Source: a virus
Lineage: Duplodnaviria > Caudoviricetes
Direction: 5' to 3' (one strand)
IMG/VR virus record: IMGVR_UViG_3300027808_002667
Span: 16,300-80,299 of that record
DNA length: 64,000 bases
Shown here: positions 2,912 to 30,790 of the stretch, piece after piece
Numbering within the stretch: the stretch's first letter is position 1
How the letters are laid out: every line of letters starts with the position of its first letter
Translations under genes and position numbers: made by a program
The notes under the pieces: model-generated
What the model saw: only the letters and a program-made list of their open reading frames with translations
What the model was told of the DNA's origin: nothing
Databases searched by the model: none

Positions 2912-2912
2912 T

Positions 2913-3623
2913 TTAGGTATAATACTTAGACAGAGCATCTTTGTTATTTTTAATAAGACCAAATGCTTCTTTTACATCTGGTGTTAAACTATTATACAAA
3001 TGCCACATTTCTTGTTCTGCTTGATCCGTATTATAGTTTGTCCCCCTTGGATGTTCTATAGTATGAGCATAGTCTCTTATAACAGGTCTCTTATTAATAA
3101 AACATAATGCAGGGAAAATGATATCCCAGCACCATCCCATTTTATATTGACTAAAATCCAAGTTGCGTTCCTTGTACCAATTGATTACATCTTTATGAAT
3201 AAACCAACAAGTACAATCTGTATTAGCAACAATTTTTAATTTATCTATAGGAAAATCTAAAGTGTTGACATCTGTGCGAGTAGAATCGTACCAAGTGTAA
3301 TCTACATTCGGAGCATAAATGCCCCAATCTGTTACATCATAATATTTTTCAGCATCGTCATATAACTTTTTCCAATCATTATATGATGCGTCTGCTTGTA
3401 TATGGAACATAACATCCGCATCAAATAGTTCAATTGCTTTTAAAAATTGAGCAGTGAAATAACTTTCTTCACCAATGTTGTGCCAATTAGGATCGTCCTC
3501 ACGGTGATTGTCGTCACTATTAATAACGACAGGCACGACCCCAATGGCACTCAGTTGCGTTTGCTTTTCTTTGGTCTTTTCATACTGACCTTGCCAATTA
3601 AAGATAAAGGTCTGTATTTTCAT
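2913..3623 (-). CDS. Putative glycosyltransferase-like protein
   Basis: FHIQADA motif, GW.WD motif near the C-terminus, island context. Confidence 0.45.
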   Translation of the reverse strand: MKIQTFIFNWQGQYEKTKEKQTQLSAIGVVPVVINSDDNHREDDPNWHNIGEESYFTAQFLKAIELFDADVMFHIQADASYNDWKKLYDDAEKYYDVTDWGIYAPNVDYTWYDSTRTDVNTLDFPIDKLKIVANTDCTCWFIHKDVINWYKERNLDFSQYKMGWCWDIIFPALCFINKRPVIRDYAHTIEHPRGTNYNTDQAEQEMWHLYNSLTPDVKEAFGLIKNNKDALSKYYT

Positions 3624-5454: not shown

Positions 5455-5798
5455 TACTTAACACCTTTATATAATTTTACAGAATCTTCTACTAAAGATC
5501 TGTTTGTTCTGATTGCATTGTCAACCATTAAATTAACTGCTTGCACATAACGAGGTCTTTTAACTTTAAAGCAAATGTCGCATTTGCGTTTTAAGTCTGC
5601 AATTTCTTCATCTGATTTTGCAGCTTGAATCGCATCTTCCAACATCCACATACGAATATGAATGATTGCGAGTTTTTCAATAACTTCGCCTAGGTTATCT
5701 GTTTCAATATATTCAGAATCAGGAAGATCTCCCTTTGCCAATACATCATGAACAGTTTGTTTAATTATTGCTTCTATGCTATTACCGAAATCTATCAT
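5454..5798 (-). CDS. DUF4254-like helical protein
   Basis: ETDNLGEVIEKLAIIHIRMWMLED pattern; start moved to the ATG at 5798. Confidence 0.45.
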   Translation of the reverse strand: MIDFGNSIEAIIKQTVHDVLAKGDLPDSEYIETDNLGEVIEKLAIIHIRMWMLEDAIQAAKSDEEIADLKRKCDICFKVKRPRYVQAVNLMVDNAIRTNRSLVEDSVKLYKGVK

Positions 5799-6951: not shown

Positions 6952-7883
6952 ACTAACCCCTTTTCTTTTTTGTACCAATCAATAGTTTGTTTTAAGCCCA
7001 CATCAAAAGTAACTTTAGCTTTCCAGCCTAGTTCTTTTAGCTTAGTGTTATCCATTTTGCGTCTTGGTGTGCCGTTTGGTTTGTCTTTGTTCCAAACAAT
7101 TTTACCGGAAAAGCCCATTTCTTTTTTGAGCTTATTAACGAGATCTTTAATTGTAAGTTCTTCGTCACTACCAACATTAACAAATTCTGGTTTATCATAA
7201 TTTTGCATTAACCAGAAACAAGCATCTGCTAGATCATCTACATATAAAAATTCTCTAGTGGGTGTACCATCACCCCAGCACTCTATGCTGTTATCCCCTG
7301 TCTTCATAGCATTATGCATCTTAGTAATGATACCAGGAATTACGTGACCATGTTCTGGAATAAAGTTATCATTAGGTCCATATAAATTGGCAGGCATACA
7401 ACTAATAGCATTAAAGCCATATTGGCGTCTGTAATATTCGCACATACGTAAACCTGTAATTTTTGCTAGTGCATAACCTTCATTGGTTGGTTCAAGTGGC
7501 GCTGTTAATAAGTATTCTTCTTTAATTGGCTGAGGTGTTACCTTAGGGTAAATGCAAGCAGAACCTAAGAACAACAATTTCTGACAACCATTTCTATATG
7601 CAGAATCAATTACATTAGTTTGAATCTGCAAATTGTCATAGATGAATTCGCCAGGATTTGTCCAGTTCCAGTTAATGCCACCAACCTTAGCTGCTGCTAA
7701 GAAAACAAAGTCTGGTCGCTCTGTACTAAAGAAGTTTTTAACTGATCGTTGGTCTCTTAAATCTAATTCGCTTTTTGATCTCAGAATTAAATTTGTATAA
7801 CCTTCTTCTTTTAATTTTCTTACAATTGCTGATCCAACTAATCCTTTATGACCCGCAACAAATATTTTGCTATTCTTTTCCAT
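6948..7883 (-). CDS. fcl: GDP-L-fucose synthase / ColC-like epimerase-reductase
   Basis: IFVAGHKGLVGSA, FLAAAKVGGI, LGSACIYP, YALAK and WGDGTPTREFLYVDD. Confidence 0.93.
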   Translation of the reverse strand: MEKNSKIFVAGHKGLVGSAIVRKLKEEGYTNLILRSKSELDLRDQRSVKNFFSTERPDFVFLAAAKVGGINWNWTNPGEFIYDNLQIQTNVIDSAYRNGCQKLLFLGSACIYPKVTPQPIKEEYLLTAPLEPTNEGYALAKITGLRMCEYYRRQYGFNAISCMPANLYGPNDNFIPEHGHVIPGIITKMHNAMKTGDNSIECWGDGTPTREFLYVDDLADACFWLMQNYDKPEFVNVGSDEELTIKDLVNKLKKEMGFSGKIVWNKDKPNGTPRRKMDNTKLKELGWKAKVTFDVGLKQTIDWYKKEKGLV

Positions 7884-7890
7884 GATATCC

Positions 7891-8904
7891 TTAATTAAAA
7901 TTAATACACATATCTTCTACAAGGGCATTAAAAGAATGCTTAGGAGTCCAACCAAGTACACTCTTAGCCTTAGATGAATCACCCAATAATGTTTCTACCT
8001 CTGCAGGGCGGAAATATTTTTCATCTACACGAACAATAATTTTTCCTGTGTGTTCGTTAATACCGACTTCATTTAGGCCTTCACCTTCCCATCGAATTTT
8101 TAATGCAAAATATGGTGCACATCTTTCAACAAATTCTTTAACCGAATATTGCTCGCCTGTAGAAATAACAAAATCGTCAGGGGCGTCTTGTTGTAGCATC
8201 AACCACATTGCTTCAACATAATCTTTAGCGTGACCCCAATCTCGTTTAGCATTTAAATTACCTAAATACAAACACTCTTGACGACCTGAACCAATTGATT
8301 CTAAGCCATTTACAATTTTCTTAGTTACAAAATTATGTCCACGACGAGGAGATTCGTGATTAAATAGAATGCCAGAACAAGCAAACATATTATATGATTC
8401 TCGATAGTTCTTAACGATCCAGTATGCGTAGAGCTTAGCTACACCATACGGCGATCTAGGATAAAATGGAGTTGTTTCTTTTTGTGGTATTTCTTGTACC
8501 AGACCATATAACTCAGATGTAGATGCCTGATAAATCTTACATGTCTTTTCCATGTTAAGTAATCTAACAGCTTCAAGAATACGTAATGTACCTAAGCCAT
8601 CAACCATTGCAGTATACTCGGGGGTTTCAAAAGAAACCTTAACGTGACTCTGTGCTGCAAGATTATAAATTTCACATGGATTGTGTTTCTTCAATACGTT
8701 CATAATAGACAAAGAGTCTGTTACATCACCATAGTGAAGATGCAAATTTGGATTGCTGTAGATATGGTCAATGCGACCTGTATTGATTGACGAGCTGCGA
8801 CGGATAATACCGTGAACTTCGTAACCTTTAGACAATAAAAGTTCTGTTAGATAAGAACCGTCTTGTCCTGTGATGCCCGTGATTAGAGCTACCTTTTTTT
8901 CCAT
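7891..8904 (-). CDS. gmd: GDP-mannose 4,6-dehydratase
   Basis: [42 protein letters not shown] and [19 protein letters not shown] before the ATG at 8904. Confidence 0.96.
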
Positions 8905-8905
8905 A

Positions 8906-9742
8906 CTATAATCTCCTGAATAATATATCTTCGTTATACTGTAAAACCTTGGCAATGGTATTCTCTGAGTAATTCCACTCACCTACTCTTATATATTTAT
9001 CACCATTGATATCCATGCTATACACATCAAGATGCTCTTTTAACATACTTGGATTGAGTGCATTAGGTATCGATAAATTGGTGCAATATAATTCCTTAAT
9101 ATTCTTTGAACATATTGCCGCAGCTAAAGCAAATGTCCCTATTCCCGATGTTGCTATTGCCTTTGCTCTTAGTAATAATGTTAAACTTTGTTGTACATCC
9201 AACACATTAACATTGACACCATTATTTTTTAATACTTGTGTTATTGGACTTTTATCATCTTCAGTAATAAAAATTACTTTCTGATTAAATCTTTTATATA
9301 ATTCTAAATAAAAAGATAAAGGATTTTGTACATAAGATGGATGCGGTGCATGTGAATACACGTCTCCGCTTCGTATATGTGCAACACAAACATCATCTCC
9401 TATAGGCTGATCTAACTCATCATGATTAACTTTTAAATTAGGCAGAATATACTTTTCACATATTTCTTTTCTTTTAAAATTTAAATCAGTAATATCTGCA
9501 TCGAAATCTTTATCTGGGCCTTCAAAAAAATAAAACCAATTGTGAGATGATTCACTTATTTTAAATTCATTGTCCCCAAATGTCAATTCAATTGCATTAA
9601 TAAATGGATGATCTGGCGATGTAAATTTTACGTTATTCTTTTCGCAGTAATATATTCCATTAGATATTTGTTGAATGTTATTACCAAGACGCCCAAACCA
9701 CCTTGGGATAAATGTGTCGTGTACTATTTCATTAGTGTGCAT
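8906..9742 (-). CDS. Alpha-1,2-fucosyl/colitosyltransferase-like, GT11-like
   Basis: GRLGNNIQQ and VAHIRSGDV resemble the GT11 GxLGNQ and HxRRGDY motifs. Confidence 0.65.
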
Positions 9743-15963: not shown

Positions 15964-17024
15964 ACTTCCTCATAATGTTGTGCTTCTACGTACAGCGTTT
16001 TCAAAATACTTTTGAGACGATCTTTATCAGAATCAGTATCAACGCTATCTACATAGTTAGATAATAATGTCATTGTGTCTTCTAAGTCAATAGATTCATC
16101 AAGAGCTTCAGATTCAAATTCTGAAAAGTCTTCAATAATTTTCAATTCTATTGGGTTCTGTTTATATATTGATTCTATAAATCCGTCAAATTTCACAAAA
16201 TCTTTTTTGTTAACTACAATAATTTTTATTAGCTTAGATGCGAATCTAGTAATATCAATGTTTGCTACATCTTCTTTTTCATCGTCGTAATAATACTTCT
16301 CAAAAATTGTAAAAGGATTTTTAACAAATTCCAATTCTTTAGTTTCGGTATCAAAGATATGGAATCCTCGATCATCGTCAAAATCATTCCAGAATAATTG
16401 ATAGGGGTTACCTAAATATTGAACATTGCCTTTACCGTGTTTGTGATGAAAATGTCCCGAGCAAACTAAATCAAAATTCTTAAAAATAATAGGATCCATA
16501 CCCGAATGATCTAGATGTGCATCTTGACCTTTAAACATCACAAACCCAGATAACTCCAAATGACCAAAGCATATTTTTGCTTTAGTATTTTTAATCATGT
16601 CAGATGCTTCTTGAAAATTATCTGCACATAACCAAGGCATCATCAAAATACTAGTACCATCAAAATCTAATTCAATAGGGCTATCCCAGGCATTTATATT
16701 TGTGTACTCGCCTAATAACAAATCTGGCGAATTTACATCATTGGTATTTTTAAAAAACGTATCATGATTACCTACAATCATATCCATTTTAATATTGCGA
16801 GTTTTTATTTCGTCAAAGAAATAATTTTTGCAAGACTTTAATGAATTGAAATTAATATACTTTCTACGATCAAAGCAATCGCCCAAGTGTATTACATTAG
16901 TAATACCTCGTTTGTCTAATTCCGGAAAGAATATTTCACTATAGAATTTTTTAAAAAATGCATCAAATGGTTGAGAGTCGGATCTTGCCCCAAAGTGTGT
17001 ATCAGTTACCAATGCTATCTTCAT
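15960..17024 (-). CDS. gp47: Recombination endonuclease subunit gp47 (SbcD/Mre11-like)
   Basis: DTHFG, HLGD.FD, VGNHD and SGHFH phosphoesterase motifs. Confidence 0.95.
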   Translation of the reverse strand: MKIALVTDTHFGARSDSQPFDAFFKKFYSEIFFPELDKRGITNVIHLGDCFDRRKYINFNSLKSCKNYFFDEIKTRNIKMDMIVGNHDTFFKNTNDVNSPDLLLGEYTNINAWDSPIELDFDGTSILMMPWLCADNFQEASDMIKNTKAKICFGHLELSGFVMFKGQDAHLDHSGMDPIIFKNFDLVCSGHFHHKHGKGNVQYLGNPYQLFWNDFDDDRGFHIFDTETKELEFVKNPFTIFEKYYYDDEKEDVANIDITRFASKLIKIIVVNKKDFVKFDGFIESIYKQNPIELKIIEDFSEFESEALDESIDLEDTMTLLSNYVDSVDTDSDKDRLKSILKTLYVEAQHYEEV

Positions 17025-17484
17025 CAATATACTCCCATGTTGAATCGCCTTTTTTCCTAACACTTGCGACATATGTTAAATGTTCGCCAGGCCCAGCGCA
17101 CCACTCAGTTGGACCAATGGGTGTTAGAATGTTTTTATCTTTATATGAATTAAAGTATATATGATATGCTTTACTATGTATAGTTCTTATACCATATTCT
17201 GCGGCATGCACTAATTCTGTTGCGTCTAGTCTACTAGCAAGTTGTTTTGCTTGTTCTTGTAAAATAGCAACCATTTCCATGATTCTATTATACTCTTGTT
17301 TAGCGTGTTCTTTTGCTACATTTAGATCTAAATCTTTTTGGTCTTGAACATTAACAGGAGCAAAAAAAGCAGCGCCAACTTCAACAGGATATTCACTAGA
17401 ACTACGATTAATGAAAGCAACTAATTGCCCGCCAATGACCGCATCTTTACTATTACGACCTTTTAAAACATTACTTTCTTTCAT
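17002..17484 (-). CDS. DUF2452-like protein
   Basis: YPVEVGA..FAPV, AKQEYNRIME...QA and YHIY pattern. Confidence 0.6.
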   Translation of the reverse strand: MKESNVLKGRNSKDAVIGGQLVAFINRSSSEYPVEVGAAFFAPVNVQDQKDLDLNVAKEHAKQEYNRIMEMVAILQEQAKQLASRLDATELVHAAEYGIRTIHSKAYHIYFNSYKDKNILTPIGPTEWCAGPGEHLTYVASVRKKGDSTWEYIDEDSIGN

Positions 17485-17932
17485 ATTTTCCTTCTAGGTA
17501 TTTTTCATTTTCTACCCATTTATTATCAACCAAGAAACCCCATTCTCTTGTTTGCTTACCAGGCATAAACAATGTCCAACATTCGATAGCTGGATCTAAT
17601 TCTATACGATGATATGAATTAGCACTGCAAGTCCTAAAATGCCCCGGTTTTCTCCAACTAGCAACTTCACTAATTTTCTTATTGTTATCATCAAAAATAG
17701 GTACCCACTCGTAGTATCCACCTTTAAGTATTAGTGTTGTATAAGACCAAGGGTGATCGTGAACATCATCAGGATCACCTTTTAAAAATTTGTGTAGAAA
17801 AATGTTAAACGGAAACTTTTTTCTATCTTTGAGAAAAAGATAATAGCGTTCAAGATATGGTTCGTTATTTACACGATCCATAATAATTCTTTTTCTGTCT
17901 AATTTTTCTAAAATATTCAAAAACCATTTCAT
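17471..17932 (-). CDS. Cupin-like protein
   Basis: LHKFLKGDPDDVHDHPW and LKGGYYE...YHRIEL metal-binding double-stranded beta-helix pattern. Confidence 0.6.
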   Translation of the reverse strand: MKWFLNILEKLDRKRIIMDRVNNEPYLERYYLFLKDRKKFPFNIFLHKFLKGDPDDVHDHPWSYTTLILKGGYYEWVPIFDDNNKKISEVASWRKPGHFRTCSANSYHRIELDPAIECWTLFMPGKQTREWGFLVDNKWVENEKYLEGKYERK

Positions 17933-17954
17933 ATTAAATCTCACTATTTATTCA

Positions 17955-18644
17955 TTATTTTCTATCACCAAACAGTTGTAATAGATTAATAAACAAATTG
18001 ATAAAGTCCATATATAAAGTCAATGCTCCACGTACCTCTGCGCTATCGCTAGTTTCTATACTGAGTTCTTCTCGAATCTTCTGTGTGTCGTATGCTGTCA
18101 ATCCGAGGAAGATAATAATTGCCAATGCACTAATAACCATTTGCATTACAGTACTACCGATAAAGATATTAACGATACTAGCAATAATGATAGCAATCAA
18201 TCCAACAAACATAAATTTACCAAGACTATCTAGACTTTGTTTAGTAAAATAACCATATCCACTCATAACACCAAACAGCACTGCCGCACCCATAAAAGCA
18301 CTAACAATACTTCCCATGGTGAACACAGCAAAGATCATTGCAAAGCTTAATCCCATCAATGACGCAAAGCCATGTAGGCAAAGTTGCGCAACACTTTTAC
18401 TCGGATTTTTACCTAACACATAGCTAACACCAAAGATTGCTGCAAGTGGGGCAAAGATCACAATCCACTTTAATACACCCGTAAAAAAGAATTGTAGTAA
18501 CTCTGGACTAGTGCCTACAAAGTAACTGACAAACATTGATACAATAACAGCAAGACTCATATGCCCGTAGACACGACCCATTGCTGAGTTAATTTCGCTT
18601 GCAGAGCGATATGATATTCCGCCTGTGTAATTTGTTCCAAACAT
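17955..18644 (-). CDS. Bax inhibitor-1/YccA family membrane protein
   Basis: About 7 hydrophobic segments, GLTAYDTQKI and ALTLYMDFINLF. Confidence 0.92.
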   Translation of the reverse strand: MFGTNYTGGISYRSASEINSAMGRVYGHMSLAVIVSMFVSYFVGTSPELLQFFFTGVLKWIVIFAPLAAIFGVSYVLGKNPSKSVAQLCLHGFASLMGLSFAMIFAVFTMGSIVSAFMGAAVLFGVMSGYGYFTKQSLDSLGKFMFVGLIAIIIASIVNIFIGSTVMQMVISALAIIIFLGLTAYDTQKIREELSIETSDSAEVRGALTLYMDFINLFINLLQLFGDRK

Positions 18645-18654: not shown

Positions 18655-19239
18655 TTAAATATCTTTTAATAAAAACCCTAACCTATCTCCAGCAGCGCTG
18701 GGATAGAACTCATCCTTCCAAACCGGTATAATTGTATTAGCTTCATGATTGGAAAAATCATCGTTGTATCTAAAATGTACTTCAATTATCTTATCCCCTA
18801 TCACCTCTACATTAAACCAAGGATATCTATCTGCAATGTCTTGTAGTATTTTGGGAAGTTTAAAAGCTTCCTCAATCTTTGTCCATCGACTAAATCTATC
18901 TAATCGTAATGGATCGTTCCTAAAACCCTCAACTGCTAGCACTTGCTTACCCCTAAAATAATCAAAACTAAGATGGCGTCCGGTAAATACTTCACACCAA
19001 AAATAGCCATCTGGTATTGAATCTGAGTCTAGGTATTGAATACTTGCACCCTTAGACATCATCTTTAGATTCATAATAGGTCTCACCGCATACTGACCGG
19101 GATAGGGAGGAACGATGCCGGCAGGACCACATTTGTATCCTAGCTTCTTTGATAAGATTAATTTATCTACACACCAAAGATCATCGAATGATATTTTTTC
19201 AAATACATCTACATCGCCAAGTTGAGGTACGTAAGTCAT
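18655..19239 (-). CDS. Conserved phage protein, possibly ATP-grasp-like
   Basis: DKLILSKKLGYKCGPAG, VRPIMNL, FWCEVFTGRHLSFDY and NVEVIGDKIIEVHFR. The fold assignment is tentative. Confidence 0.4.
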   Translation of the reverse strand: MTYVPQLGDVDVFEKISFDDLWCVDKLILSKKLGYKCGPAGIVPPYPGQYAVRPIMNLKMMSKGASIQYLDSDSIPDGYFWCEVFTGRHLSFDYFRGKQVLAVEGFRNDPLRLDRFSRWTKIEEAFKLPKILQDIADRYPWFNVEVIGDKIIEVHFRYNDDFSNHEANTIIPVWKDEFYPSAAGDRLGFLLKDI

Positions 19240-19246: not shown

Positions 19247-19723
19247 TTATTCGAACTCGTTGTCTTCTCTGTGCCCAACTCTCATTGCCATGTTTGCATC
19301 TGTTTCTCGTACTTCAACCTTGCTGCACCAGATTCGTTCTGCTTCGGTTTTGCCGTACATTGGGAGGAAGATAGTATTAATATACTCATAAAGAAAATCA
19401 GAAATCCCCTCACAACCTGTTTTCTCCACCTCTGTAATTTTTGCTAATTTTAATCTGCCTAATTCAAGTAAATGTTCCCGCATAGGATCATCCTGTGCGA
19501 CTAATAGAGTATGGTCAAACCAATCCTCTAATTTTTCTTTTAATGGTTTAAGTCCACCGAAATCCATACACCAATTACGAGCATCCAGTGTGTCACATTC
19601 AAATTCAAAATGAAATGATAGTGCATATCCATGAACTAGATTACAATGACTGTCAGCTCTCCATTGTCTGTACGCTACGGGACCTATTTGTTTATATGTT
19701 TTTGTTGAGATATATTTTGCCAT
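19247..19723 (-). CDS. queD: 6-carboxy-5,6,7,8-tetrahydropterin synthase
   Basis: SHCNLVHGY (CxxxHG), DFGGLK, FDHTLL, GCEG and VEVRET. Confidence 0.9.
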   Translation of the reverse strand: MAKYISTKTYKQIGPVAYRQWRADSHCNLVHGYALSFHFEFECDTLDARNWCMDFGGLKPLKEKLEDWFDHTLLVAQDDPMREHLLELGRLKLAKITEVEKTGCEGISDFLYEYINTIFLPMYGKTEAERIWCSKVEVRETDANMAMRVGHREDNEFE

Positions 19724-19768
19724 CTCTTGCCTCTCTGAGTAAGTTTGATGGCATGCAGAGTATTTAGA
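19724..19768 (-). promoter_or_regulatory. Late-promoter-like TCTAAATA plus a structured 5' leader of queD
   Basis: Minus strand TCTAAATA CTCTGCATGCCATCAAACTTACTCAGAGAGGCAAGAG ATG. CTCTG/CAGAG and TGCC/GGCA pairings overlap the SD region. Confidence 0.45.
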
Positions 19769-20795
19769 GAGGGGTGAATGCCGGAGACCTCTTTGTCATT
19801 TCCTGAAAAGCCCTAGAATCATACCAATCGAATAAATCTTCGATAATTTTATCTAAGTTACATTCTGGCTTCCAAGAAGTTTCAGATTGTAATTTTTCAG
19901 AATTTGCAATTAATATTGCAGGATCACCATCGCGGCGAGGTGCAACATTGAAAACAATACCGTCGCCAATTCTTTCCGCATCTAATAAAAAGTTTTCTGT
20001 TTTAACAAATACTTCAAGATTCGAATGTCCTTTGACTGATCCTATATTATATATGCCTTTGAGATTATTCTCAATAGCTAAGATGTGTGCTTTGGCAATA
20101 TCCGTGACATGAATATAATCTCTGACACAAGTTCTATCCTTTGTCGGATAATCTATACCATACATTGTAAATGCTTCGTTAGACATTGCTGCTTCAAAAA
20201 TTTTAGCAAAAATATGAGTAGCATTTGGTTCTTGACCGTGTATGCCACCTTCTACTGCACCGCAAGCATTGAAATATCTAAATGACACATACTCTAAACC
20301 ATATGCCTTATTGTGCCAATTAAGCATCATCTCAGTCATTAGTTTAGATTCACCATATGGTGATATCGGATTTGTATCTGATTTTTCGAATAGCATATGA
20401 CTTTTTTCAGGGTCACCATAAACCGAAGCGCTGCTACTAAAAATGAATTTTGTTTTAGGGGAATATTTGTTAATGTGTTCTAAATACTTTGCAGTTTTAG
20501 CAACATTGTTATCATAATATTCTATTGGGTTAGTCATACTTGGACCAACTAAACTAGTGCCAGCACAATGAATAATTGCATCTGGCATATTATTCATTAC
20601 GCTTTTTAATGAATCAGCATCAACAAAATCACATTGAATGAATTCATCATAGTATGTTTTTAAATGTGGACTAACTCGTCTGTCAATACCAACAACTCTA
20701 TAGCCTTGATTTTTTAGTTCAATGCAAATAGCGCCACCGATATAACCGGCGGCACCTGTAACTATAACTGTTTTAATATTTTGCTGCTGGGACAT
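19764..20795 (-). CDS. galE: UDP-glucose 4-epimerase
   Basis: TGAAGYIGG, FSSSASVYG, YGESK (YxxxK), FRYFNACGA and RDYIHVTDIA. Confidence 0.9.
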   Translation of the reverse strand: MSQQQNIKTVIVTGAAGYIGGAICIELKNQGYRVVGIDRRVSPHLKTYYDEFIQCDFVDADSLKSVMNNMPDAIIHCAGTSLVGPSMTNPIEYYDNNVAKTAKYLEHINKYSPKTKFIFSSSASVYGDPEKSHMLFEKSDTNPISPYGESKLMTEMMLNWHNKAYGLEYVSFRYFNACGAVEGGIHGQEPNATHIFAKIFEAAMSNEAFTMYGIDYPTKDRTCVRDYIHVTDIAKAHILAIENNLKGIYNIGSVKGHSNLEVFVKTENFLLDAERIGDGIVFNVAPRRDGDPAILIANSEKLQSETSWKPECNLDKIIEDLFDWYDSRAFQEMTKRSPAFTPL

Positions 20796-21945
20796 GATCT
20801 CTATAATCCTTACCACCTCGCCACCAATGTGATCCTTCGGCATTAAACATAATATCTATACAACGATCAATAGTATTAGATGTCCAAGTAGCTAATTTGC
20901 CTAGATTGGCTCGCTCTTGAAACAACAAACTATTCAATTTAAATATGGCATCATCTTGTGACCATGGGATGTAAAGACATTCACGATCATTAGCAAATGT
21001 TTCTGGGAATGATCTATACGCAGGATACAAACAATTTGTACCTAGTGCATCTGCTTCTGATGCTGTATTACTTACCCAATCTTGTAATGCACAATTAAAT
21101 AATACTCGAGAATCACCCAACAACTCATAGTACTCATTCTTTTTAAGATTCTCATATATTTTAAAATTGTGAGTCTTTTCCAATGCTCGCGCGCGATCCA
21201 AATACTTTTGGTTGTTGCTACGTAATGGTCCACCTGATAAAACGGCAAACTCTACTGCAGGATTAAGTGTATGATAACGCTCAATTAGATCCATAAAGAA
21301 ATCAGGTTGTTTTTCTTGATCAAATCTTGCCGCAAACACTACACGAAGTTTTCGCTCATTAAATGGAATCAACGACTCAACACGGCTGCGAACTTCATTT
21401 TTGTCAAACGCCAAACCAGAGATATTAAAGATTGGTGCTTCCCAGCCCGCAATTTTCATATGGGCAACCATCTCTTCGTTAGATGCAAGTACACCTGTAA
21501 CGAATTGGTCTGTCATTTTCTCATATAGACCCATCCACTTCTGCATGTCCCATACGTGTACAAAATCATCTGGGTCAATAGATTGTGCAAGACAACGAAC
21601 AAATATTCGAGGTTGATATTCATAATTTACTTGATCCATGATGTAAGGCAATGCCTCAATACCCGGAGTAAACATATCTTCAAAAAAGATTGTATCTTCG
21701 TATGTAATTTCACCAGCTTTCATCTTCTTAATAAGATTAGCCATTTGTGTCAACGAATAATAACTACGACCATGTGCATCAAGTACTTGCCCAGTTACAA
21801 TTGCTTTAGAGTCATCTAAAATATCACCATGAATTACTTCATAATCAATACCACGACGTTTAAATGCTGCCTCGCTCCAATGTTGAAGCTGTAAGGTATA
21901 ACGACCTTCATACGGCTCCAGACCCATATAATATAATTTTCCCAT
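20773..21945 (-). CDS. GT-B fold glycosyltransferase (GT4-like)
   Basis: VFAARFDQEKQPDFF, LFNCALQDWVSNTASEADALG and YPAYRSFPE. Confidence 0.8.
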   Translation of the reverse strand: MGKLYYMGLEPYEGRYTLQLQHWSEAAFKRRGIDYEVIHGDILDDSKAIVTGQVLDAHGRSYYSLTQMANLIKKMKAGEITYEDTIFFEDMFTPGIEALPYIMDQVNYEYQPRIFVRCLAQSIDPDDFVHVWDMQKWMGLYEKMTDQFVTGVLASNEEMVAHMKIAGWEAPIFNISGLAFDKNEVRSRVESLIPFNERKLRVVFAARFDQEKQPDFFMDLIERYHTLNPAVEFAVLSGGPLRSNNQKYLDRARALEKTHNFKIYENLKKNEYYELLGDSRVLFNCALQDWVSNTASEADALGTNCLYPAYRSFPETFANDRECLYIPWSQDDAIFKLNSLLFQERANLGKLATWTSNTIDRCIDIMFNAEGSHWWRGGKDYRDHVPAAKY

Positions 21946-21947: not shown

Positions 21948-22346
21948 TCAATCCCTAGTAAAATACATTCTGCAACCGTTTTCGCCATCTTCTGATACTT
22001 CAATTACATAATCTCGATCAGGCCACTGTGCAATTAATTTCTCATGCAAATCTTTAGCAATCATCTCACAAGACTTATGATTCAATTTTAATGTGTCTTC
22101 ATTATACCAGCGTTCAATAGTACGCTTTGCTTGTATAAATTCAACATCTCTATCATCATGAAATACTTCCATCTCAACACGGAAATGAAAAATATGTCTA
22201 TGTAGATCAGCTAAGAATGAAACATCCAACCAATGTTCTTCCGGTTTACCAAAACGCTTTGTTGCTAATTTTGGATCCGTTGCCGCTGCTGGGTAACGAT
22301 GAATACCTTCCTTCTGAAAGGTAACAAAAATAAAACTCTTGTTCAT
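21948..22346 (-). CDS. dpdL: QueD paralogue, T-fold, DpdL-like putative 7-carboxy-7-deazaguanine decarboxylase
   Basis: LADLHRHIF (LxxxHRHxF) replaces the QueD CxxxHGH motif; SCEMIA and VSEDGENG T-fold motifs; adjacent to the DpdA-like gene. Confidence 0.7.
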   Translation of the reverse strand: MNKSFIFVTFQKEGIHRYPAAATDPKLATKRFGKPEEHWLDVSFLADLHRHIFHFRVEMEVFHDDRDVEFIQAKRTIERWYNEDTLKLNHKSCEMIAKDLHEKLIAQWPDRDYVIEVSEDGENGCRMYFTRD

Positions 22347-23632
22347 GCAAATAAGTCCTCAAGTGTTGAAGGGGCGACTTCGCTAACAGGCTCTGAATCC
22401 ATAAACCTGCCAACATTCTTTTCCCAATAAAGAAAATCATCAGTATTTTTTACATCGAATAATGTCGAATATTCGTTTTCACAATTTTTATCTCTGCAGA
22501 ATCTTAAAAATTCTTCTTTAGAATTCATAAGTGTACTAACATCCAATGTAAAGTTATGTACATTAGTTAAAATAAATGCAAGTCTGGCTCTCATAACATC
22601 TACAAATTTACCACCATTCTCAAGATATTCACCTACAGAAATATTCATTAATTTATGATATTGTTCTGCAGTATATTCTGTACCACATACCGCATTAATT
22701 TCCGCGACAACTGTTCTATAGATATTTGAAAATGGTCTTCCCATTTTTACAGATGAGCCACCATAGTCACCAGGATTCTTTTTCTTGCTATGTGAGAAAT
22801 AAAACAATCCATTATCTAAAGACATAGAATGAGTAGTTGAATCATATGAAATATCAATGCCATCATATAAGCCAGTTTGACTAAATAACAAATATGGCAA
22901 GATACGCTTTAACGCACCAACGCCCAATACGTGTAAATGAAATGGTCTTTCAAATGGCACAGCATTAACAAAGAACGCTCGCTTAACATCTTCAAGTGGC
23001 CCCATACCCAAGGCAGCTGATCCCATAGCTACACCGCCAATACGATGATGTAAATCTTTTGGAATTTCATCAAGCATTGCCTCGCCCCACAATTTGTAGG
23101 TATCTTGGCCTGACCCCTGAATAATAACAAAAGGTCTGCAAGAACTTTTCATATCATCAAATCTTTGAATTTGTTCTAATACATTTTTGCCAGTTTGCCT
23201 AGCATAGCTCTCAAAATTTTCCATATCTACATATCTACGCTTAGTATCAATTTTAGATGATACTCCAGAAGCAGATGTAGACTTAACAGGAATCTCATCA
23301 AACGCCATTCCGATATCTGCGTATGTTGCTTGATTCTCAAAAACCTTATTACGAGTTTCAGATGTATTAGGCAGACCTCTAGTAATAATCTGCAACCCAC
23401 CAGAGTCAGCATGAATGTTTTTAATTACTGGTCTAAATTTTTGTAATTTTGCACCAAAGTTCTTTTCTGTAAATCCATTATACAATAAAGAAAATTGATG
23501 GTTGTTTTTATTGTGAACAGTTTTGGAAATCATATCTTTAATCATTTCCAATGTCTCTGGGTCATTACATTGTTCTGCACCTAACCTCAGATACGCCGGT
23601 CCTGAAATAACATATTCTAATTGTCTGCTCAT
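22343..23632 (-). CDS. dpdA: TGT-fold deazaguanine DNA transglycosylase (DpdA-like)
   Basis: ADSGGLQ (TGT DSGGFQ), MAFDEIP, IIQGSG, HLHVLGVG and SYDSTT (second catalytic Asp). Clustered with folE/queD/queE. C-terminus STLEDLFA. Confidence 0.82.
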   Translation of the reverse strand: MSRQLEYVISGPAYLRLGAEQCNDPETLEMIKDMISKTVHNKNNHQFSLLYNGFTEKNFGAKLQKFRPVIKNIHADSGGLQIITRGLPNTSETRNKVFENQATYADIGMAFDEIPVKSTSASGVSSKIDTKRRYVDMENFESYARQTGKNVLEQIQRFDDMKSSCRPFVIIQGSGQDTYKLWGEAMLDEIPKDLHHRIGGVAMGSAALGMGPLEDVKRAFFVNAVPFERPFHLHVLGVGALKRILPYLLFSQTGLYDGIDISYDSTTHSMSLDNGLFYFSHSKKKNPGDYGGSSVKMGRPFSNIYRTVVAEINAVCGTEYTAEQYHKLMNISVGEYLENGGKFVDVMRARLAFILTNVHNFTLDVSTLMNSKEEFLRFCRDKNCENEYSTLFDVKNTDDFLYWEKNVGRFMDSEPVSEVAPSTLEDLFA

Positions 23633-24531
23633 AAAAATAAACTTTCTAATGAAGACTTTTGTATGTCTCCAGCTTTTTCTGTCAAATTGACTGTAATCTG
23701 TTTTAGCTTAGGGTTCTTTTGCTTGAACATTCTCATCCAAGTTCCCTTTGCCACTGTATCTTGTTTAGGCAAATTCCATATCTCTGATATGAACTTTAAT
23801 CCCGATGCTGTTCTTTCCCATCTTTGTTCTGCAGTCATTCCAGTTGACCAAGTAGACTTTTCGGCAGTTGCTTGTTCTTCTTTAAAAATAATATTGTTGC
23901 AGATAAAAACACCCAAACCATTTTGGATAAACTCTATACCAAAATTTTGATCTTCACATGGAATAAGGGTACCATCAGAATTAACGAACTTCTCATCAAA
24001 ATATATTTCTTTATTGTGATGTTTCTTAATATTCTTAACAATCAGAATACTTGTCTTTGTCATAAATGTTGGTCTGAATCTCCATCTAATTATATCACCT
24101 TCAGCGTTTTCTGTCAAGTCTTTTGTGAAAGGCTGATTGGCAGGATTGACAGGCAAGAACATATCTACGTCTGCAAGATTCTCAAATGGAATATTTCTAA
24201 ATGTTTTTACGAATGTATCATTTGCCCCATACTTTTGACCAGTATAAAGGTATGTGTCATTGTCAGCAAAAATGGCATAGTCCTCATCCGAATTATAAAA
24301 TTCTTTCAAAAGGATATTTCTTGCATCACCGGGAGTTAGTACTTTACCTTGATGTTTAATATATTGAACATCTGGTTCATATTGTTCTTCTTTATAATTT
24401 TGCGCAAACACTACAGGTTGAAGATCATTTTTCTTGACCCAATCCAATTGCCGTTTGTGTATTTCGGCACGTCTTGCATTTGTACTGTCAGGTCCGAACC
24501 ATGATATAATATAGCATTTCTCAAACTTCAT
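23629..24531 (-). CDS. GT-A fold glycosyltransferase, putative DNA-base glycosyltransferase
   Basis: DARNILL, IFADND (DxD) and CEDQNF; C-terminus SSLESLFL. Confidence 0.6.
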   Translation of the reverse strand: MKFEKCYIISWFGPDSTNARRAEIHKRQLDWVKKNDLQPVVFAQNYKEEQYEPDVQYIKHQGKVLTPGDARNILLKEFYNSDEDYAIFADNDTYLYTGQKYGANDTFVKTFRNIPFENLADVDMFLPVNPANQPFTKDLTENAEGDIIRWRFRPTFMTKTSILIVKNIKKHHNKEIYFDEKFVNSDGTLIPCEDQNFGIEFIQNGLGVFICNNIIFKEEQATAEKSTWSTGMTAEQRWERTASGLKFISEIWNLPKQDTVAKGTWMRMFKQKNPKLKQITVNLTEKAGDIQKSSLESLFL

Positions 24532-25041
24532 TTACTCACCTAGCATTTTAATTAAGTGTTTTGTTTGATGCATTGCATCGTCAAGCGCATTATGGTAAAC
24601 GCCTTCTCGTTCGTCAGCTGGGATCCAATTGAACAAAGCCTTTACTGTACGATAACATCTGTCATCCCAGCATTTCCAAGGTGGTTCTCTGTTCGTAATA
24701 AAATATGCATTTGATAAAATTGTGTTATCAAAGACAGCACCGTTTCCCCAAACAGGCAAACTCTTAGGCCCAAACCATTCCTCAAAATCATCTAATGCTT
24801 GATTCAAAGGAATGTTATTGCGAGTAAGTTCTCGCAAAGCTTCTTTATTTTGCTCTGACCACCATTTAATAGTTTCTTTTGAGACATGCATACCTACATC
24901 TTTGCAGGTTTTAAGATCAATGGTACAATAGAAAGTATCTAAAATTTCTTTACCTTCAAATTTTACTGCACCAATTGAACATATAGCGGCATTTGATCTT
25001 GTTGACATTGTTTCCAAGTCAACCATTATATTAACTGTCAT
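24532..25041 (-). CDS. DEDDh 3'-5' exonuclease (DexA/Rv2179c-like)
   Basis: [21 protein letters not shown] and HNALDDA. Confidence 0.88.
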
Positions 25042-25718
25042 TTACATCCTTGTCTTGCAATCTGGTAAAATTCGTTTCTAACTTCTGGGTGATTTTTAAA
25101 TCCACCACCTAGACGAACTGTTACTGTAGAACTACCTGTATCTTCAACGCCTCTAGATTTTACGCAATAGTGTTGTGCATCAATTAATACGGCAACATCT
25201 TCGGTATCAAGAATATATTGTAGTGTGTGAAAAATTTGTTCTGTTAATCGTTCTTGAATCTGTGGTCGTTTGCTAAAATATTCAACAATACGATTAATTT
25301 TAGATAGACCAAGAACTTTGTCTTTTGGCACATATGCAACAGTTGCTAAACCGTCAATAACGACAAAGTGATGCTCACAATTAGATTGTACATTAACATT
25401 GCGTTCAACAACCATTTCATTATATTTCATTTTGTTGTCAACAGTTGTGCATTTAGGGAATGCATCATAATCGAGACCCCAAAAGATTTCGTTAACATAC
25501 ATTTTGGCAACACGCTTAGGTGTTTCCATCAAACTATCGTCATTTAGATCGAGTCCCAACACTTGCATAATATATGAAAAGCTTTTTTCAATTTCTGCAA
25601 TTTTATCTTTGCGATCCATTGATACTTTAAATGTCGGTGTTTCCACTCCCATTTTAACTAAGTGTTCGTGAACTTGTTGTCCCAATACTGGGTCTGTTTT
25701 TGTCTTGTTATATGACAT
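25038..25718 (-). CDS. folE: GTP cyclohydrolase I
   Basis: [32 protein letters not shown] and HYCVKSRG. Confidence 0.97.
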
Positions 25719-25786
25719 TTTGAATCCTTCCTAACTCGGATATGATGATTGAAATTTGTTACCTTTGTGTAACACTATTATTTATA
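25719..25786 (-). promoter_or_regulatory. T4-type late promoter (TATAAATA, 25779-25786) plus a structured folE leader
   Basis: TATAAATA ATAG TGTTAC-ACAAAG-GTAACA ... ATCC-GAGTTAGGAA-GGAT TCAAA ATG. Confidence 0.6.
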
Positions 25787-26635
25787 TTAAGTACCCCAAG
25801 CATTTTTGAATAATGGGATTTGTAATCTGTCGGAATATCTCCAACCTTTTTTCATTGCCAATTCTGCAACACCACGATTGTTCAATGAATACATTTCTTC
25901 TGTGCCACCACAAGGCATAATATAAACGACGCCGCCAAAACCAAATTTGCGATATTCATTTACTGCTTGTTCTGCTTCTTCGGCATCTTCTTTAGTTGCA
26001 ACTACAAATTTAAGGTATGTATTACCTAACAATTGATATTGTTGAATAACTTCTGGTCTAATTGCATCCTCCCATTTTTCACCGCTGATTGATAATTTAG
26101 GGGATACTGAAAATGTTATGTTGCCATAGTCTCGACCAAATCTTGTCCACTCCTGAAATAGATATTCATCGAACTCATCAGTTATAAGTTGCGTGCCATT
26201 AGTTTCAAAAGTAAGTTCTTTTAGACTTTGCATCTTTGGATGTTCTAAAAGATCTGGATAAGCTTTTTGCCAACCCAATAAAGGTTCACCGCCAGTAATT
26301 ACCAGATGTTCGTCACGCCATTCCTTGTACGGTAGCGTATCCACAATAGCATCGGCAATCGAATCAGTAGAAAGAACGGGAGACAAATGCTTAAAACGAG
26401 GATCCCAAGAAGCATAACTATCACAACCCGTAGACACCAAAGGTAACGAACCATATTCTTTATACTTAGAAGGGTCAACATTGTTTGCTTCATTACTAAG
26501 TTCTCCCTTAGGCATCCCAAAGCCAGCACATTTAAAGTTACAACCAAACGTTCTCAAAAACACTGAAGGCACGCCCATATAGCGACCTTCACCCTGTATG
26601 CTATAAAATAATTCTGCAATCTTAATTTTGCTCAT
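25787..26635 (-). CDS. queE: 7-carboxy-7-deazaguanine synthase (radical SAM)
   Basis: ELFYSIQGEG, FLRTFGCNFKC...GCDS, VITGGEPLL, FETNGT and SVSPKL. Confidence 0.93.
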   Translation of the reverse strand: MSKIKIAELFYSIQGEGRYMGVPSVFLRTFGCNFKCAGFGMPKGELSNEANNVDPSKYKEYGSLPLVSTGCDSYASWDPRFKHLSPVLSTDSIADAIVDTLPYKEWRDEHLVITGGEPLLGWQKAYPDLLEHPKMQSLKELTFETNGTQLITDEFDEYLFQEWTRFGRDYGNITFSVSPKLSISGEKWEDAIRPEVIQQYQLLGNTYLKFVVATKEDAEEAEQAVNEYRKFGFGGVVYIMPCGGTEEMYSLNNRGVAELAMKKGWRYSDRLQIPLFKNAWGT

Positions 26636-26912
26636 ATTCACTTCCAAAAATAGTAGACCATTTTTTTAATTTGGCAATTTTATTATCAGCGGCAATACTT
26701 ACTTGTTCGCTATCTACAAGATCAAATGTAATACATAAGTCAATCATGGCTTGTAGATCACCCAACTCTTCGGCTAGATGTTCTCTGTTTGTTTTTGGTT
26801 TGCCGGGTTTAAAATTGTCAATACCAAAGCGGTCGCATTTGCTAACTGCTTGTATAACTTCAGCACATTCTTCTTGTAGAATGTTCAATATTTCTTTGGT
26901 TTTTGTAATCAT
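26622..26912 (-). CDS. MazG-like nucleotide pyrophosphohydrolase
   Basis: LQEECAEVIQA and LAEELGDL (EExxE...EExxD). Confidence 0.7.
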   Translation of the reverse strand: MITKTKEILNILQEECAEVIQAVSKCDRFGIDNFKPGKPKTNREHLAEELGDLQAMIDLCITFDLVDSEQVSIAADNKIAKLKKWSTIFGSEYEQN

Positions 26913-29896: not shown

Positions 29897-30790
29897 TTAA
29901 CCAACTTGTATAATTTGCGCAGGATTGCCCTGGAAGTTGAATGAACCGTAGTGGTTCAAGGAGATTGAAGGATCGAGCCAGATTTCTCCGCCGATATCTT
30001 GCCAGCGTCTGCTGAATGTGTAGTCCTCAGACAAATAACGCTTGTCTTTAGGATCAATCATTGTATCGAAGAATGCATAGAAGTGAGGGTTCAATTCTGG
30101 AGGTGTATTCAAATCGTTGTTGTATTTCAACTCTGGATACTTCTCAATCATCTGGTCGATAACTTCACGCTTAATCATCATGAAGCCTGTAGCTCCATCA
30201 TGTAAACGAATTAGACCATTCTCAATTGCAATTTGTTTTGCTTCACGATTTAGGAACTTAAAGTTAATTGCGTAATCGCTACCAAATGATGCAATTGCTT
30301 TGTCATCGATTGGATCGTTCGTTTGTTTAAGGCTTTCACGAATGCGCTGCCAATTAACGCCCTTCTTAGGGTAAGCGCCGACTGCAACATCTTTGTTGTG
30401 TGCAATTAATTTAATAACGTCTTCAACCTGAAATTCAATGTCGGCATCAATAAACATTAAGCGAGTGAAATTGCTTTGTAGAAAATATGCCACAAGAACA
30501 TTACGTGCTCTTGTAACTAAAGATTCATTTGCAATTGTACCAAACGCGATTGGAATTTGATGTTGATTGCAAAATGTTAGTAACCGAATTGTTGATCGGA
30601 AATACGCTTCCGTTAATTGACCGCCGTAGCATGGGGTCGCAATAAAGATTCTTTCTTTACGAAGAGCATCTAGACTGACTTCTAATTTTTTCTCATTAGG
30701 AGCAGCTGCGCTAGATTGTTGTCCCGCTTTAGGCAAGTTAGGAACAGGGGGCAAAGCCATAGGCGATACTTTTTTAATTTTTTTATCCAT
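29897..30790 (-). CDS. GT-A fold glycosyltransferase-like protein
   Basis: IFIATPCYGG, ESLVTRARN, MFIDAD (DxD) and YLSEDYTF. Confidence 0.7.
   Translation of the reverse strand: MDKKIKKVSPMALPPVPNLPKAGQQSSAAAPNEKKLEVSLDALRKERIFIATPCYGGQLTEAYFRSTIRLLTFCNQHQIPIAFGTIANESLVTRARNVLVAYFLQSNFTRLMFIDADIEFQVEDVIKLIAHNKDVAVGAYPKKGVNWQRIRESLKQTNDPIDDKAIASFGSDYAINFKFLNREAKQIAIENGLIRLHDGATGFMMIKREVIDQMIEKYPELKYNNDLNTPPELNPHFYAFFDTMIDPKDKRYLSEDYTFSRRWQDIGGEIWLDPSISLNHYGSFNFQGNPAQIIQVG

Follow-up and report, generated by a model that had tools for sequence, protein, structure and literature searches.

A DpdL-linked glycosyltransferase family of phages, a candidate for sugar tailoring of deazaguanine

The window, that is, the whole stretch of 64,000 nt of the contig of an uncultured aquatic T4-like tailed phage which was analyzed, carries a tightly packed minus-strand gene block with folE, an exonuclease gene, GT-A, DpdA3-like, DpdL, GT-B, GalE and queD. 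FolE, QueD, QueE, and DpdA are all present on the contig. The features are the following:

25787..26647, minus strand: QueE-like radical SAM enzyme (7-carboxy-7-deazaguanine synthase); phrog_2076 QueE-like match at 1.7e-53, Radical_SAM Pfam match weak
25779..25786, minus strand: TATAAATA, box resembling a T4-type late promoter before folE; exact copy, putative in function
25038..25718, minus strand: FolE, GTP cyclohydrolase I; PF01227 at 4.7e-61
24532..25041, minus strand: Rv2179c-like 3'-5' exonuclease; PF16473 at 3.1e-47, syntenic in close relatives
23629..24531, minus strand: GT-A fold glycosyltransferase; predicted fold, Foldseek, family alignment, C-terminal tail scan
22343..23632, minus strand: DpdA3-like DNA transglycosylase; phrog_10773 at 1.3e-93, Tgt match weak (6.5e-6)
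21948..22346, minus strand: DpdL, QueD paralogue and proposed CDG decarboxylase; LADLHRHIF signature, tblastn, alignment
20773..21945, minus strand: GT4-like GT-B glycosyltransferase of the DpdL-linked family, 390 aa; Glycos_transf_1, AF2 fold, DpdL linkage
19764..20795, minus strand: GalE, UDP-glucose 4-epimerase; TIGR01179, PDB GalE 2c20
19247..19723, minus strand: QueD (CPH4 synthase); PF01242 at 3.7e-15, phrog_2389 at 3.5e-41
866-8982: glycan island with GT2, GT10 fucosyltransferase, DegT aminotransferase, epimerase, and GDP-mannose 4,6-dehydratase

The box TATAAATA is found in six exact copies in the window, on the coding strand in all cases, and scans for sigma-70 promoters and terminators across the gene block gave chance level only. 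The Rv2179c-like exonuclease was found in 20 related loci.

As the original prediction had it, the GT-B and GalE genes are placed between dpdL, recognized upstream by its signature, and queD, recognized downstream by the PTPS Pfam domain and phrog_2389, and the glycan island is indeed separate from them (~10.8 kb away). The dpdL stop codon TGA (21950-21948) and the GT-B ATG (21945-21943) have two bases between them, so that the A of the ATG is 3 nt away from the final base of the stop, which is the spacing originally given; a TTG at 21951 is an alternative GT-B start overlapping the dpdL stop. GT-B ends with a TAA at 20775-20773. The galE ORF opens at ATG 20843, with a 71-nt overlap with GT-B, and the start agreeing with homologues and with the TIGR01179 alignment is ATG 20795 (MSQQQNIKTVIVTGAAGYIGG), which retains an overlap with the GT-B 3′ end, as had been claimed, amounting to 23 nt, and has AAGGA 11 nt upstream. 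The abutting and overlapping layout is in line with the translational coupling proposed from it. However, such genes are normal in T4-like genomes, and thus the layout by itself is not above chance. What exceeds chance is the comparative linkage to DpdL, which is the strongest evidence.

In detail, DpdL adjoins GT-B in 108 of 110 IMG/VR loci, and the remaining two are cut off. In the first set, DpdL lies within ~2.1 kb of GT-B in 85 of the 87 loci (two truncated), and in a further set, where GT-Bs are 26-38% identical to the queries, it is present in all 26. The two genes are also found together in the phages BUCT-ZZ01, ACP17, Xanthomonas X1, Phosso, PA5oct, and BCSR5 with different gene orders, that is, DpdA3-GTB-DpdL in ACP17, GTB-DpdA3-DpdL in X1, DpdL-GTB in Phosso, GTB-DpdL in PA5oct, and DpdL nearby in BCSR5. 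Eleven compact operons have the order QueD-QueE-FolE-DpdL-GTB-DpdA. The gene located 3′ of GT-B in these operons gave no match by hhalign against DpdA3, PADLOC, Pfam, or PDB profile, and it is queuine tRNA-ribosyltransferase-like (phrog_887) in PHROGs. GT-B accompanies two different DpdA families, of phrog_10773 and phrog_887 type, and every cassette also carries QueE and DpdA. Rather than being a stray gene of glycan synthesis, GT-B is tied to dpdL at the level of the family in many unrelated phages, with a count which comes largely from related T4-like phages and could reflect synteny shared by descent. This linkage is an observation, as are the gene identities, the folds, and the conservation of the presumed donor-binding residues described below.

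The same distribution bears on an alternative in which the target of GT-B and GalE is not a deazaguanine but, for example, a pterin from the FolE/T-fold branch, a protein of phage or host, or an envelope glycan of the host, with the dpdL linkage resulting from a mobile cassette. FolE and the T-fold enzymes are pterin enzymes, the cyanobacterial pterin glucosyltransferase BGluT is a fold match (Z 24), the phage invests in glycans elsewhere (866-8982), and annotation pipelines label the homologues "cell wall biosynthesis." On the contrary, the BGluT score is equalled or exceeded by those of a dozen unrelated GT4 enzymes, the glycan genes of the phage are kept in their own island, QueE in every cassette, where DpdA is found too, commits the pathway to deazapurines, and the linkage persists despite full reshuffling of gene order and hosts ranging from Pseudomonas to Sinorhizobium. 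An acceptor of this kind seems improbable.

The GT-B family had no member within 8 kb of dpdL in Cellulophaga phage phiST, nor in RHph_I1_18, Bakedbeans, D479, Ahp1, or MA9V-3. The DNA of phiST contains dDG according to mass spectrometry (PMC10516641). Since GT-B is not found near dpdL in these six DpdL phages, including phiST with its plain dDG, it would be an optional step following DpdL and not needed for DG; judging by its distribution, GT-B seems to be a facultative tailoring enzyme, with its step following that of DpdL. The pathway is otherwise similar to that of phiST (PMC10516641), with FolE, QueD, QueE, a DpdL bearing LxxxHRHxF, a DpdA3 distantly related to TGT, and no QueC, and in the present phage it is predicted to exchange G for 7-deazaguanine. 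In contrast to the present phage, GalE and GT-A are also absent there, and DpdA3 is 259 aa long versus 429 aa here, the latter with a polymerase-like tail. The main text of the phiST dDG paper never mentions a glycosyltransferase (PMC10516641).

The DpdL of the window (132 aa) contains LADLHRHIF, a match to the published signature LxxxHRHxF (PMC10516641); H49-R50-H51-x-F53 is invariant in the DpdL alignment, and tblastn with this protein recovered the DpdL of ACP17 and phiST. The base is the predicted substrate of DpdL, whose activity is only proposed, having failed in Escherichia coli (PMC10516641). The DpdA3-like protein is homologous to an X1 protein annotated as queuine tRNA-ribosyltransferase and to the ACP17 neighbor. 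QueC (PF06508) was found neither on the 80-kb contig (45% complete) nor in four relatives at least 92% complete, and a ThyA-like hydroxymethylase neither on the contig nor in two close relatives which are 100% complete. As these two complete relatives have neither gene, no rival acceptor pathway is seen. An hmC or hmU acceptor was judged unlikely, because the ThyA-like gene is missing from the contig and both complete relatives.

GT-B is a predicted GT4-like retaining glycosyltransferase. Its AF2 model (pLDDT 93.7, pTM 0.92) shows two Rossmann-like domains with an interdomain cleft, and the sequence matches Pfam Glycos_transf_1 marginally (26.5 bits, gathering cut-off 26.4). A phmmer search against the PDB gave no glycosyltransferase match. 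According to VIA, the model matches 6kih (Z 27.4, rmsd 3.7, 345 aligned), MshA (26.6), and BshA (26.4), with Z ~27 for sucrose-phosphate synthase (SPS), MshA, and BshA; retaining GT4/GT5 enzymes match with Z 25-27 over ~320-345 residues, and other fold matches are SenB, LmbT, and BGluT. R207, E211, K212, and E297 show little or no variation among 42 diverse members and are kept in the most distant GT-Bs (ACP17, X1, Phosso, PA5oct, and BCSR5). We take them to be the usual nucleotide-sugar positions of GT4, as assigned from the alignment and common GT4 motifs and not from superposition. With MshA, BshA, SPS, and BGluT, GT-B shares the two-Rossmann fold (Z 24-27) and apparently also the R/K pair and the C-terminal Glu at the nucleotide-sugar site. 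It differs from them in its 9-15% identity, in an E-x4-R-Y-T signature of the N-terminal loop, where GT4 is usually glycine-rich, and in the first acidic position of EX7E, which in the family is D289 or Glu and not the canonical E.

At E<=1e-3, a search of 1.84 billion proteins gives only 819 family representatives, with ~800 clusters at 50% identity, an indication that the family is distinct and does not merge into the bulk of GT4. It is nevertheless very common in aquatic metagenomes, where over 8000 clusters are counted at 90% identity. Within the sampled data, the family is seen only in phage or viral contexts, including cultured phages of Pseudomonas, Burkholderia, Xanthomonas, Acidovorax, Sinorhizobium, and Synechococcus; two of the further IMG/VR scans for distant members returned none. 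A putative Rosetta-stone fusion, P0166 (655 aa), was discarded, its extra part being a low-complexity tail only.

The α- and β-glucosyltransferases of T4 act on 5-hydroxymethylcytosine DNA (PMC13216743). The resemblance to these enzymes (AGT and BGT) raised in the original prediction was not found. PF11440 and PF09198 have no Pfam match in GT-B even at E<=10, and PF11440 matched nowhere on the contig, as was also the case for the control. AGT and BGT are absent among the best 48-50 Foldseek or VIA matches, and in BFVD, those labelled DNA alpha-GT come only at ranks 31 and 50 (TM ~0.5). There is no PDB sequence match either, and the nearest folds are those of GT4, many with small-molecule acceptors. 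Assignment to the AGT/BGT family was rejected, the likeness being that of generic GT-B folds; kinship to QTMAN/DUF3524 was also rejected (no match at E<=10). The GT-B family is acidic (median pI 5.7), and a clamp-type C-terminal tail is absent from GT-B in every lineage. Charge was dismissed as a test of DNA binding, since DpdA3 is acidic too and the measure is non-discriminating.

GalE scores 289.2 bits against TIGR01179 (cut-off 262.3) and 1.8e-58 against the PDB GalE 2c20. Its GAAGYIGG (GxxGxxG), SSSAS (Ser), and YGESK (YxxxK) stretches align with 2c20 and E. coli GalE. The gatekeeper site, which bears on whether the substrates are hexoses alone or N-acetylhexosamines as well and is presumably Y299 in E. 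coli numbering, is a Leu of intermediate size. Judging from the sequences, the GT-B and GalE genes are both intact and have the catalytic motifs of their families. GalE is the commonest direct downstream neighbor of GT-B, within 150 nt in 49 of the 87 loci of the first set and within 3 kb in 61. Thus, a dedicated supply of UDP-Gal or UDP-GalNAc to a transfer step tied to the deazaguanine pathway is the most economical reading. The original claim of a dedicated UDP-sugar for a modified base gains from this and from the dpdL linkage, but GT-A is an equally good candidate for using what GalE makes.

This second transferase of the block (GT-A, 23629-24531) had been overlooked originally. Its AF2 model (pLDDT 89.5) has a disordered tail and a DxD motif (D90-N-D92), and Foldseek matches it to the GT2 enzymes TarS, TarP, and PcManGT. 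The C-terminus is SSLESLFL and that of the DpdA3-like protein STLEDLFA; an L-E-x-L-F tail is found in only three of the 268 contig ORFs, namely DpdA3, GT-A, and the phage DNA polymerase. The GT-A tail is thus polymerase-like and appears to be of the clamp-docking type. In T4, one DNA glucosyltransferase is clamp-bound and one is free (PMC13216743).

GalE might feed the clamp-tailed GT-A, or the 454-aa GT4-like protein found in its slot in some relatives, with GT-B using a host donor, for example, UDP-glucose. GT-B occurs without GalE in ACP17, X1, Phosso, BCSR5, and all compact operons, and GalE is restricted to aquatic T4-like phages, which commonly have a second transferase. However, in the 49 loci GalE directly follows GT-B and not the slot transferase, and many of these loci have no slot transferase within 10 kb on each side. 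Of the alternatives weighed here, this one is held to be the least probable.

The DNA of this phage probably carries a sugar-bearing purine. With slightly better than even confidence, GT-B is regarded as the signature tailoring enzyme of DpdL-type pathways, which would glycosylate deazaguanine with a UDP-hexose, with GalE supplying the donor. In this pathway, FolE, QueD, and QueE would produce 7-carboxy-7-deazaguanine, DpdL would convert it to 7-deazaguanine, and the DpdA3-like transglycosylase would exchange guanine in phage DNA for this base. GT-B would then place a sugar on deazaguanine, and the packaged DNA would contain glycosylated deazaguanine and not plain dDG. GalE, translationally coupled to GT-B, would draw on the host pool to provide UDP-galactose (or UDP-GalNAc), and GT-A, with its polymerase-like tail, would be a second transferase, probably adding to or extending the sugar on DNA. 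We infer deazaguanine as the acceptor, as well as the sugar, the atom, and the choice between DNA and free base. Support comes from the tails which DpdA3 and GT-A have in common with the DNA polymerase, pointing to a DNA context, and from PA5oct, a GT-B carrier with a modified G that is chemically unidentified (PMC12191111). The lack of a clamp tail, the acidic GT-B, the nearest solved folds, often of enzymes with small-molecule acceptors, and the missing likeness to AGT/BGT argue against it.

Transfer by GT-B on DNA is held tentatively, at below even confidence, and transfer on the free base before insertion is considered rather unlikely. In a broader version, unlikely to a slightly greater degree, GT-B would glycosylate free DG (or CDG) after DpdL, and either DpdA would insert the sugar-base or the glycoside would be a soluble storage, detoxified, or decoy product, with GT-A as the sole DNA-acting transferase. 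GT-B is coupled to DpdL, an enzyme predicted to use the base as its substrate (PMC10516641), lies between DpdL and DpdA in the compact operons, is acidic without a clamp tail, and resembles MshA, BshA, SenB, LmbT, BGluT, and SPS. The eukaryotic TGT inserts the bulky queuine. On the other hand, two unrelated DpdA families would both need a pocket for a glycosylated base, fold neighbors do not predict the acceptor, and the sugar modifications of phage DNA known to us are all made on the polymer. T4 β-glucosyltransferase also works on DNA without binding the clamp (PMC13216743).

Returning to the favored reading, the proposed enzymes resemble the T4 glucosyltransferases in being two UDP-sugar transferases, one of them clamp-tied, which act on a non-canonical base after replication, and in the GT-B fold class (PMC13216743); they differ in an acceptor which is a purine analogue without a hydroxyl and in a sugar which is probably galactose-type.

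Because 7-deazaguanine has no hydroxyl, it cannot form an O-glycoside as in T4 or base J, and the sugar would have to be N- or C-linked or attached as an ester to CDG which has kept its carboxyl. In one doubtful elaboration, DpdL would free the electron-rich pyrrole carbon by taking off the C7 carboxyl, GT-B would make a galactose C-glycoside (or an N2 N-glycoside), and in this phage the clamp-tethered GT-A would extend it to a disaccharide.

To our knowledge, galactosyl- and mannosyl-queuosine of eukaryotic tRNA, made by QTGAL and QTMAN, are the only sugar-bearing 7-deazaguanines. One of these enzymes is of GT-A and the other of GT-B fold, and the sugar is placed on the cyclopentenediol hydroxyl of queuosine. 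Unlike here, their substrate is RNA, and queuosine is beyond the present pathway, which is without QueC, QueF, and the later steps. The sugar decorations of phage DNA that we know of are all on hydroxymethylated pyrimidines, and the eight DNA deazaguanines known to us bear small C7 groups or none. No description of a glycosylated 7-deazaguanine in DNA was found in the literature searched.

END nucleases restrict PA5oct (PMC12191111). A glycosylated deazaguanine, if true, would add a new chemical class to the DNA bases and would bear on the evasion of restriction and CRISPR, on the targets of modification-dependent nucleases, and on artefacts in metagenome sequencing; GT-B may also serve as a tool for labelling deazaguanine in DNA. 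If the C-glycoside were true, it would be the first case of a purine analogue with a sugar in any DNA, and also of a nucleobase with a carbon-linked sugar in a genome.

The linkage of the GT-B gene, encoding a GT4-like glycosyltransferase, to dpdL is the main result of this analysis. The 87 loci compared were 80 from IMG/VR (fetched by family alignment), BUCT-ZZ01, ACP17, X1 and four distant loci. By HMM scan, 85 of them contain DpdL, nearly always immediately upstream of the GT-B and no more than ~2.1 kb away; the remaining two are contigs ending ~70 nt before the GT-B. DpdL also lies beside the GT-B in all 26 further loci fetched by divergent family members.

The gene order varies. It is DpdA3-GTB-DpdL-QueE in ACP17, GTB-DpdA3-DpdL-QueE in X1, GTB-DpdL in PA5oct and DpdL-GTB in Phosso, where the GT-B is annotated 'glycosyltransferase'. 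In BCSR5, the GT-B is located 2.7 kb downstream of dpdL and adjoins a weak match to DpdA3, the DNA transglycosylase. Eleven short operons are ordered QueD-QueE-FolE-DpdL-GTB-DpdA; their DpdA belongs to another family, phrog_887 ('queuine tRNA-ribosyltransferase'; four members scanned, E 1e-27 to 1e-36).

No GT-B family member was found within 8 kb of dpdL in six DpdL phages, including phiST, whose DNA contains plain 7-deazaguanine nucleoside (dDG) by mass spectrometry (PMC10516641). The GT-B was thus not seen without dpdL and dpdL was seen without the GT-B, a distribution that resembles that of a tailoring enzyme with the DpdL product as its substrate. The main text of the 2023 DpdL paper contains 'glycosyl' 0 times; in the same work, dDG was not obtained in E. 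coli with DpdL and DpdA3 of ACP17 and phiST, and further enzymes are perhaps required (PMC10516641).

In the window, the genes concerned are the following:

21948-22346, minus strand: DpdL, 132 aa, with LADLHRHIF, matching LxxxHRHxF
20773-21945, minus strand: GT-B, 390 aa, marginal Glycos_transf_1 match
19764-20795, minus strand: GalE, 343 aa, TIGR01179, most plausible start
40 nt past galE, minus strand: QueD

The motif LxxxHRHxF is the signature defining DpdL, a QueD paralogue with proposed decarboxylation of 7-carboxy-7-deazaguanine (CDG) (Hutinet, Cui and colleagues, PMC10516641). The coordinates of the original prediction for the GT-B and GalE are exact; two bases separate the TGA stop of dpdL from the GT-B ATG, and the last 23 nt of the GT-B overlap the most plausible galE start. 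Upstream, folE, an Rv2179c-like exonuclease and the genes of a 300-aa protein and a 429-aa DpdA3-like protein overlap or abut, up to and including dpdL. The minus strand carries all genes treated around the module. The folE-to-dpdL block is preceded by a TATAAATA box (25779-25786), which in turn has queE just before it. Exact TATAAATA boxes occur six times in the window (25779, 31419, 32828, 34001, 35861 and 40731), all on the coding strand. Their total is below chance (6 observed vs 12.5 expected at random), and it is their strand and placement bias, not their number, that marks them as putative late promoters. After queD, a 194-aa phrog_3577 protein is encoded (18655-19239), and directly downstream of the module (17002-18644) are a DUF2452 protein, a cysteine-dioxygenase-like cupin and a Bax1-I membrane protein.

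The surrounding viral contig is 80.3 kb long, with a completeness of 45% (CheckV). It belongs to a T4-like phage encoding gp23, gp20, sheath, UvsW, UvsY and gp46/47, with gp43, gp44 and gp45 immediately upstream of the window. Pelagibacter phage HTVC008M, Methylophilales phage Melnitz and several cyanophages have major capsid proteins ~62% identical to that of this phage.

The AlphaFold model of the GT-B is confident (pLDDT 93.7, 42-sequence alignment), and Foldseek and VIA-align placed it among the retaining GT4/GT5 GT-B enzymes. Its fold matches include sucrose-phosphate synthase (Z 27.4), MshA, BshA, PglA, glycogen synthase, SenB, LmbT and the cyanobacterial pterin glucosyltransferase BGluT (Z 24). 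A likeness to T4 AGT/BGT, for which the original prediction proposed to look, was not found: neither enzyme is among the fold matches listed by Foldseek and VIA-align, and there is no sequence match to them.

Less likely readings for the GT-B and GalE are a pterin glycoside or an unrelated glycan target; these fit poorly, as QueE and DpdA are present in every cassette and the glycan genes form an island of their own, which had been claimed and was found:

866-8982: glycan island with GT2, GT10 alpha-1,3-fucosyltransferase, DegT aminotransferase, GDP-fucose-synthase-like epimerase and GDP-mannose 4,6-dehydratase

The product of this island is probably a fucose or amino-sugar glycan, apart from the DNA module. 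Elsewhere, between uvsY and the head genes, a 297-aa protein (29897-30790) with a weak, sub-threshold match to Anp1 (mannosyltransferase, 5.6e-5) may be a further glycosyltransferase.

The GT-B family is sharply bounded, with 819 representatives at E<=1e-3 among 1.84 billion (phmmer). The query shares 77% identity or more with over 8000 of the family's clusters (built at 90% identity), and the phage group bearing it is therefore very abundant in sequenced waters. Invariant residues include R207, E211, K212 and E297 in the C-terminal domain, which we take to be the usual GT4 donor-site positions, and the N-terminal loop E10-x4-R15-Y16-T17, as well as Q67, D90, D127 and E142. All are kept in the most distant homologues (ACP17, X1, Phosso, PA5oct and BCSR5), and by this conservation the GT-B appears to be an active transferase whose acceptor site is particular to the family.

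With 289 bits, GalE exceeds the cut-off of the equivalog TIGR01179 (262 bits). It aligns at full length to solved GalE enzymes and has the motif GxxGxxG, the Ser and YxxxK. Leu occupies the position of E. coli Y299, with either UDP-Gal or UDP-GalNAc as the candidate product. Downstream of the GT-B, 49/87 loci have a GalE homologue within 150 nt, and 61/87 have one within 3 kb. GalE accompanies the GT-B only in the aquatic T4-like group; ACP17, X1, Phosso, BCSR5 and the compact operons lack it. It is thus an accessory rather than a core component, one that changes or secures the donor. The second transferase of the block might be its user instead, but galE comes after the GT-B and not after that gene. 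In PA5oct, a 172-aa protein just downstream of dpdL (L089:8645-9160) matches the GalE HMM built here (4e-14) and may, from this match, be a truncated Rossmann/SDR domain.

This second transferase is the 300-aa protein at 23629-24531, which has no Pfam match and a confident GT-A fold (pLDDT 89.5) resembling TarS, TarP and PcManGT, with D90-x-D92 invariant. Disorder is predicted for its last 15 residues, which close with SSLESLFL; the C-termini of DpdA3 and the 830-aa DNA polymerase are STLEDLFA and QATLEGLFG, respectively. The tail codons are at 22343-22366 (DpdA3) and 23629-23652 (GT-A), and gp43 is at window -10108..-7616. The contig has 268 ORFs of 50 aa or more, and none of them other than these three has the C-terminus L-[ED]-x-[LFIM]-[FYL] plus 0-2 residues. 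The pairing of polymerase and DpdA3 tails recurs in ACP17 and X1, and in close relatives the GT-A slot is occupied by an unrelated 454-aa protein with weak GT4 Pfam hits and the same LESLF tail.

The T4 polymerase docks on the gp45 clamp via such a C-terminal peptide. T4 alpha-GT also binds gp45 and beta-GT does not (PMC13216743). The common tails and this parallel suggest that DpdA3 and the slot transferase likely work on DNA at the clamp, and such tethering could explain complete G replacement by DpdA3. Since T4 beta-GT is not bound by gp45, the GT-B having no such tail is no argument against a DNA acceptor. A different C-terminal tail of the GT-B, R-x-x-x-[DN]-Y-R-x-[HY]-...-[SA]-K-Y (20776-20820), is conserved in the T4-like subgroup alone and missing in the distant homologues; it might act as a docking peptide of a different type.

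In the most likely order of the pathway, FolE, QueD and QueE would turn GTP into CDG, an established route, and DpdL would convert CDG to 7-deazaguanine (DG), as proposed in the literature. Clamp-tethered DpdA3 would then swap G in DNA for DG, the GT-B, judging from its linkage, would put a hexose from a GalE-equilibrated UDP-sugar on the deazaguanine, and the GT-A would add a further sugar. Two close relatives with complete genomes (190 and 222 kb) contain neither QueC nor a ThyA-like hydroxymethylase; a preQ0 branch and hmC/hmU as sugar acceptors are therefore unlikely. DG has no hydroxyl, so the candidate atoms are N2, C7/C8 or the carboxyl of CDG. The acidic charge of the GT-B and the small-molecule enzymes near its modelled fold would lean slightly towards a free-base acceptor; its coexistence with two DpdA families and all known precedent lean towards DNA.

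Other genes accompany dpdL in the compared loci. An unannotated ~175-aa family (FxGxEVEHT, TLFVVG, YxGAN) lies just upstream in 45/87 loci (e.g., L044:8812-9333, L037:7352-7894, L086:7505-7966, L002:4233-4715 and L003:5513-5941) and is fused to the DpdL C-terminus in L085 and L087. The window lacks this family, which has no Pfam or PHROG matches and may be another pathway component. DpdL forms the C-terminal part of longer proteins in Bakedbeans (gp176, L093:7191-8369, 383 aa) and MA9V-3 (L096:7428-8309, 294 aa), each with an additional N-terminal domain; in both phages the GT-B is not near dpdL. In BUCT-ZZ01, queD and queE lie on either side of a gene annotated xanthine-guanine phosphoribosyltransferase (L001:14404-14865), a hint that this phage may handle the deazaguanine base at the nucleotide level.

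Every part of the module belongs to a known family, and the combination predicts a DNA base, a sugar-bearing deazaguanine not found described in the literature searched. PA5oct, a carrier of the GT-B, has an unidentified modified G (PMC12191111). The cultured carriers PA5oct, ACP17, X1, Phosso, BCSR5 and BUCT-ZZ01 are material for a direct mass-spectrometric check of this base.
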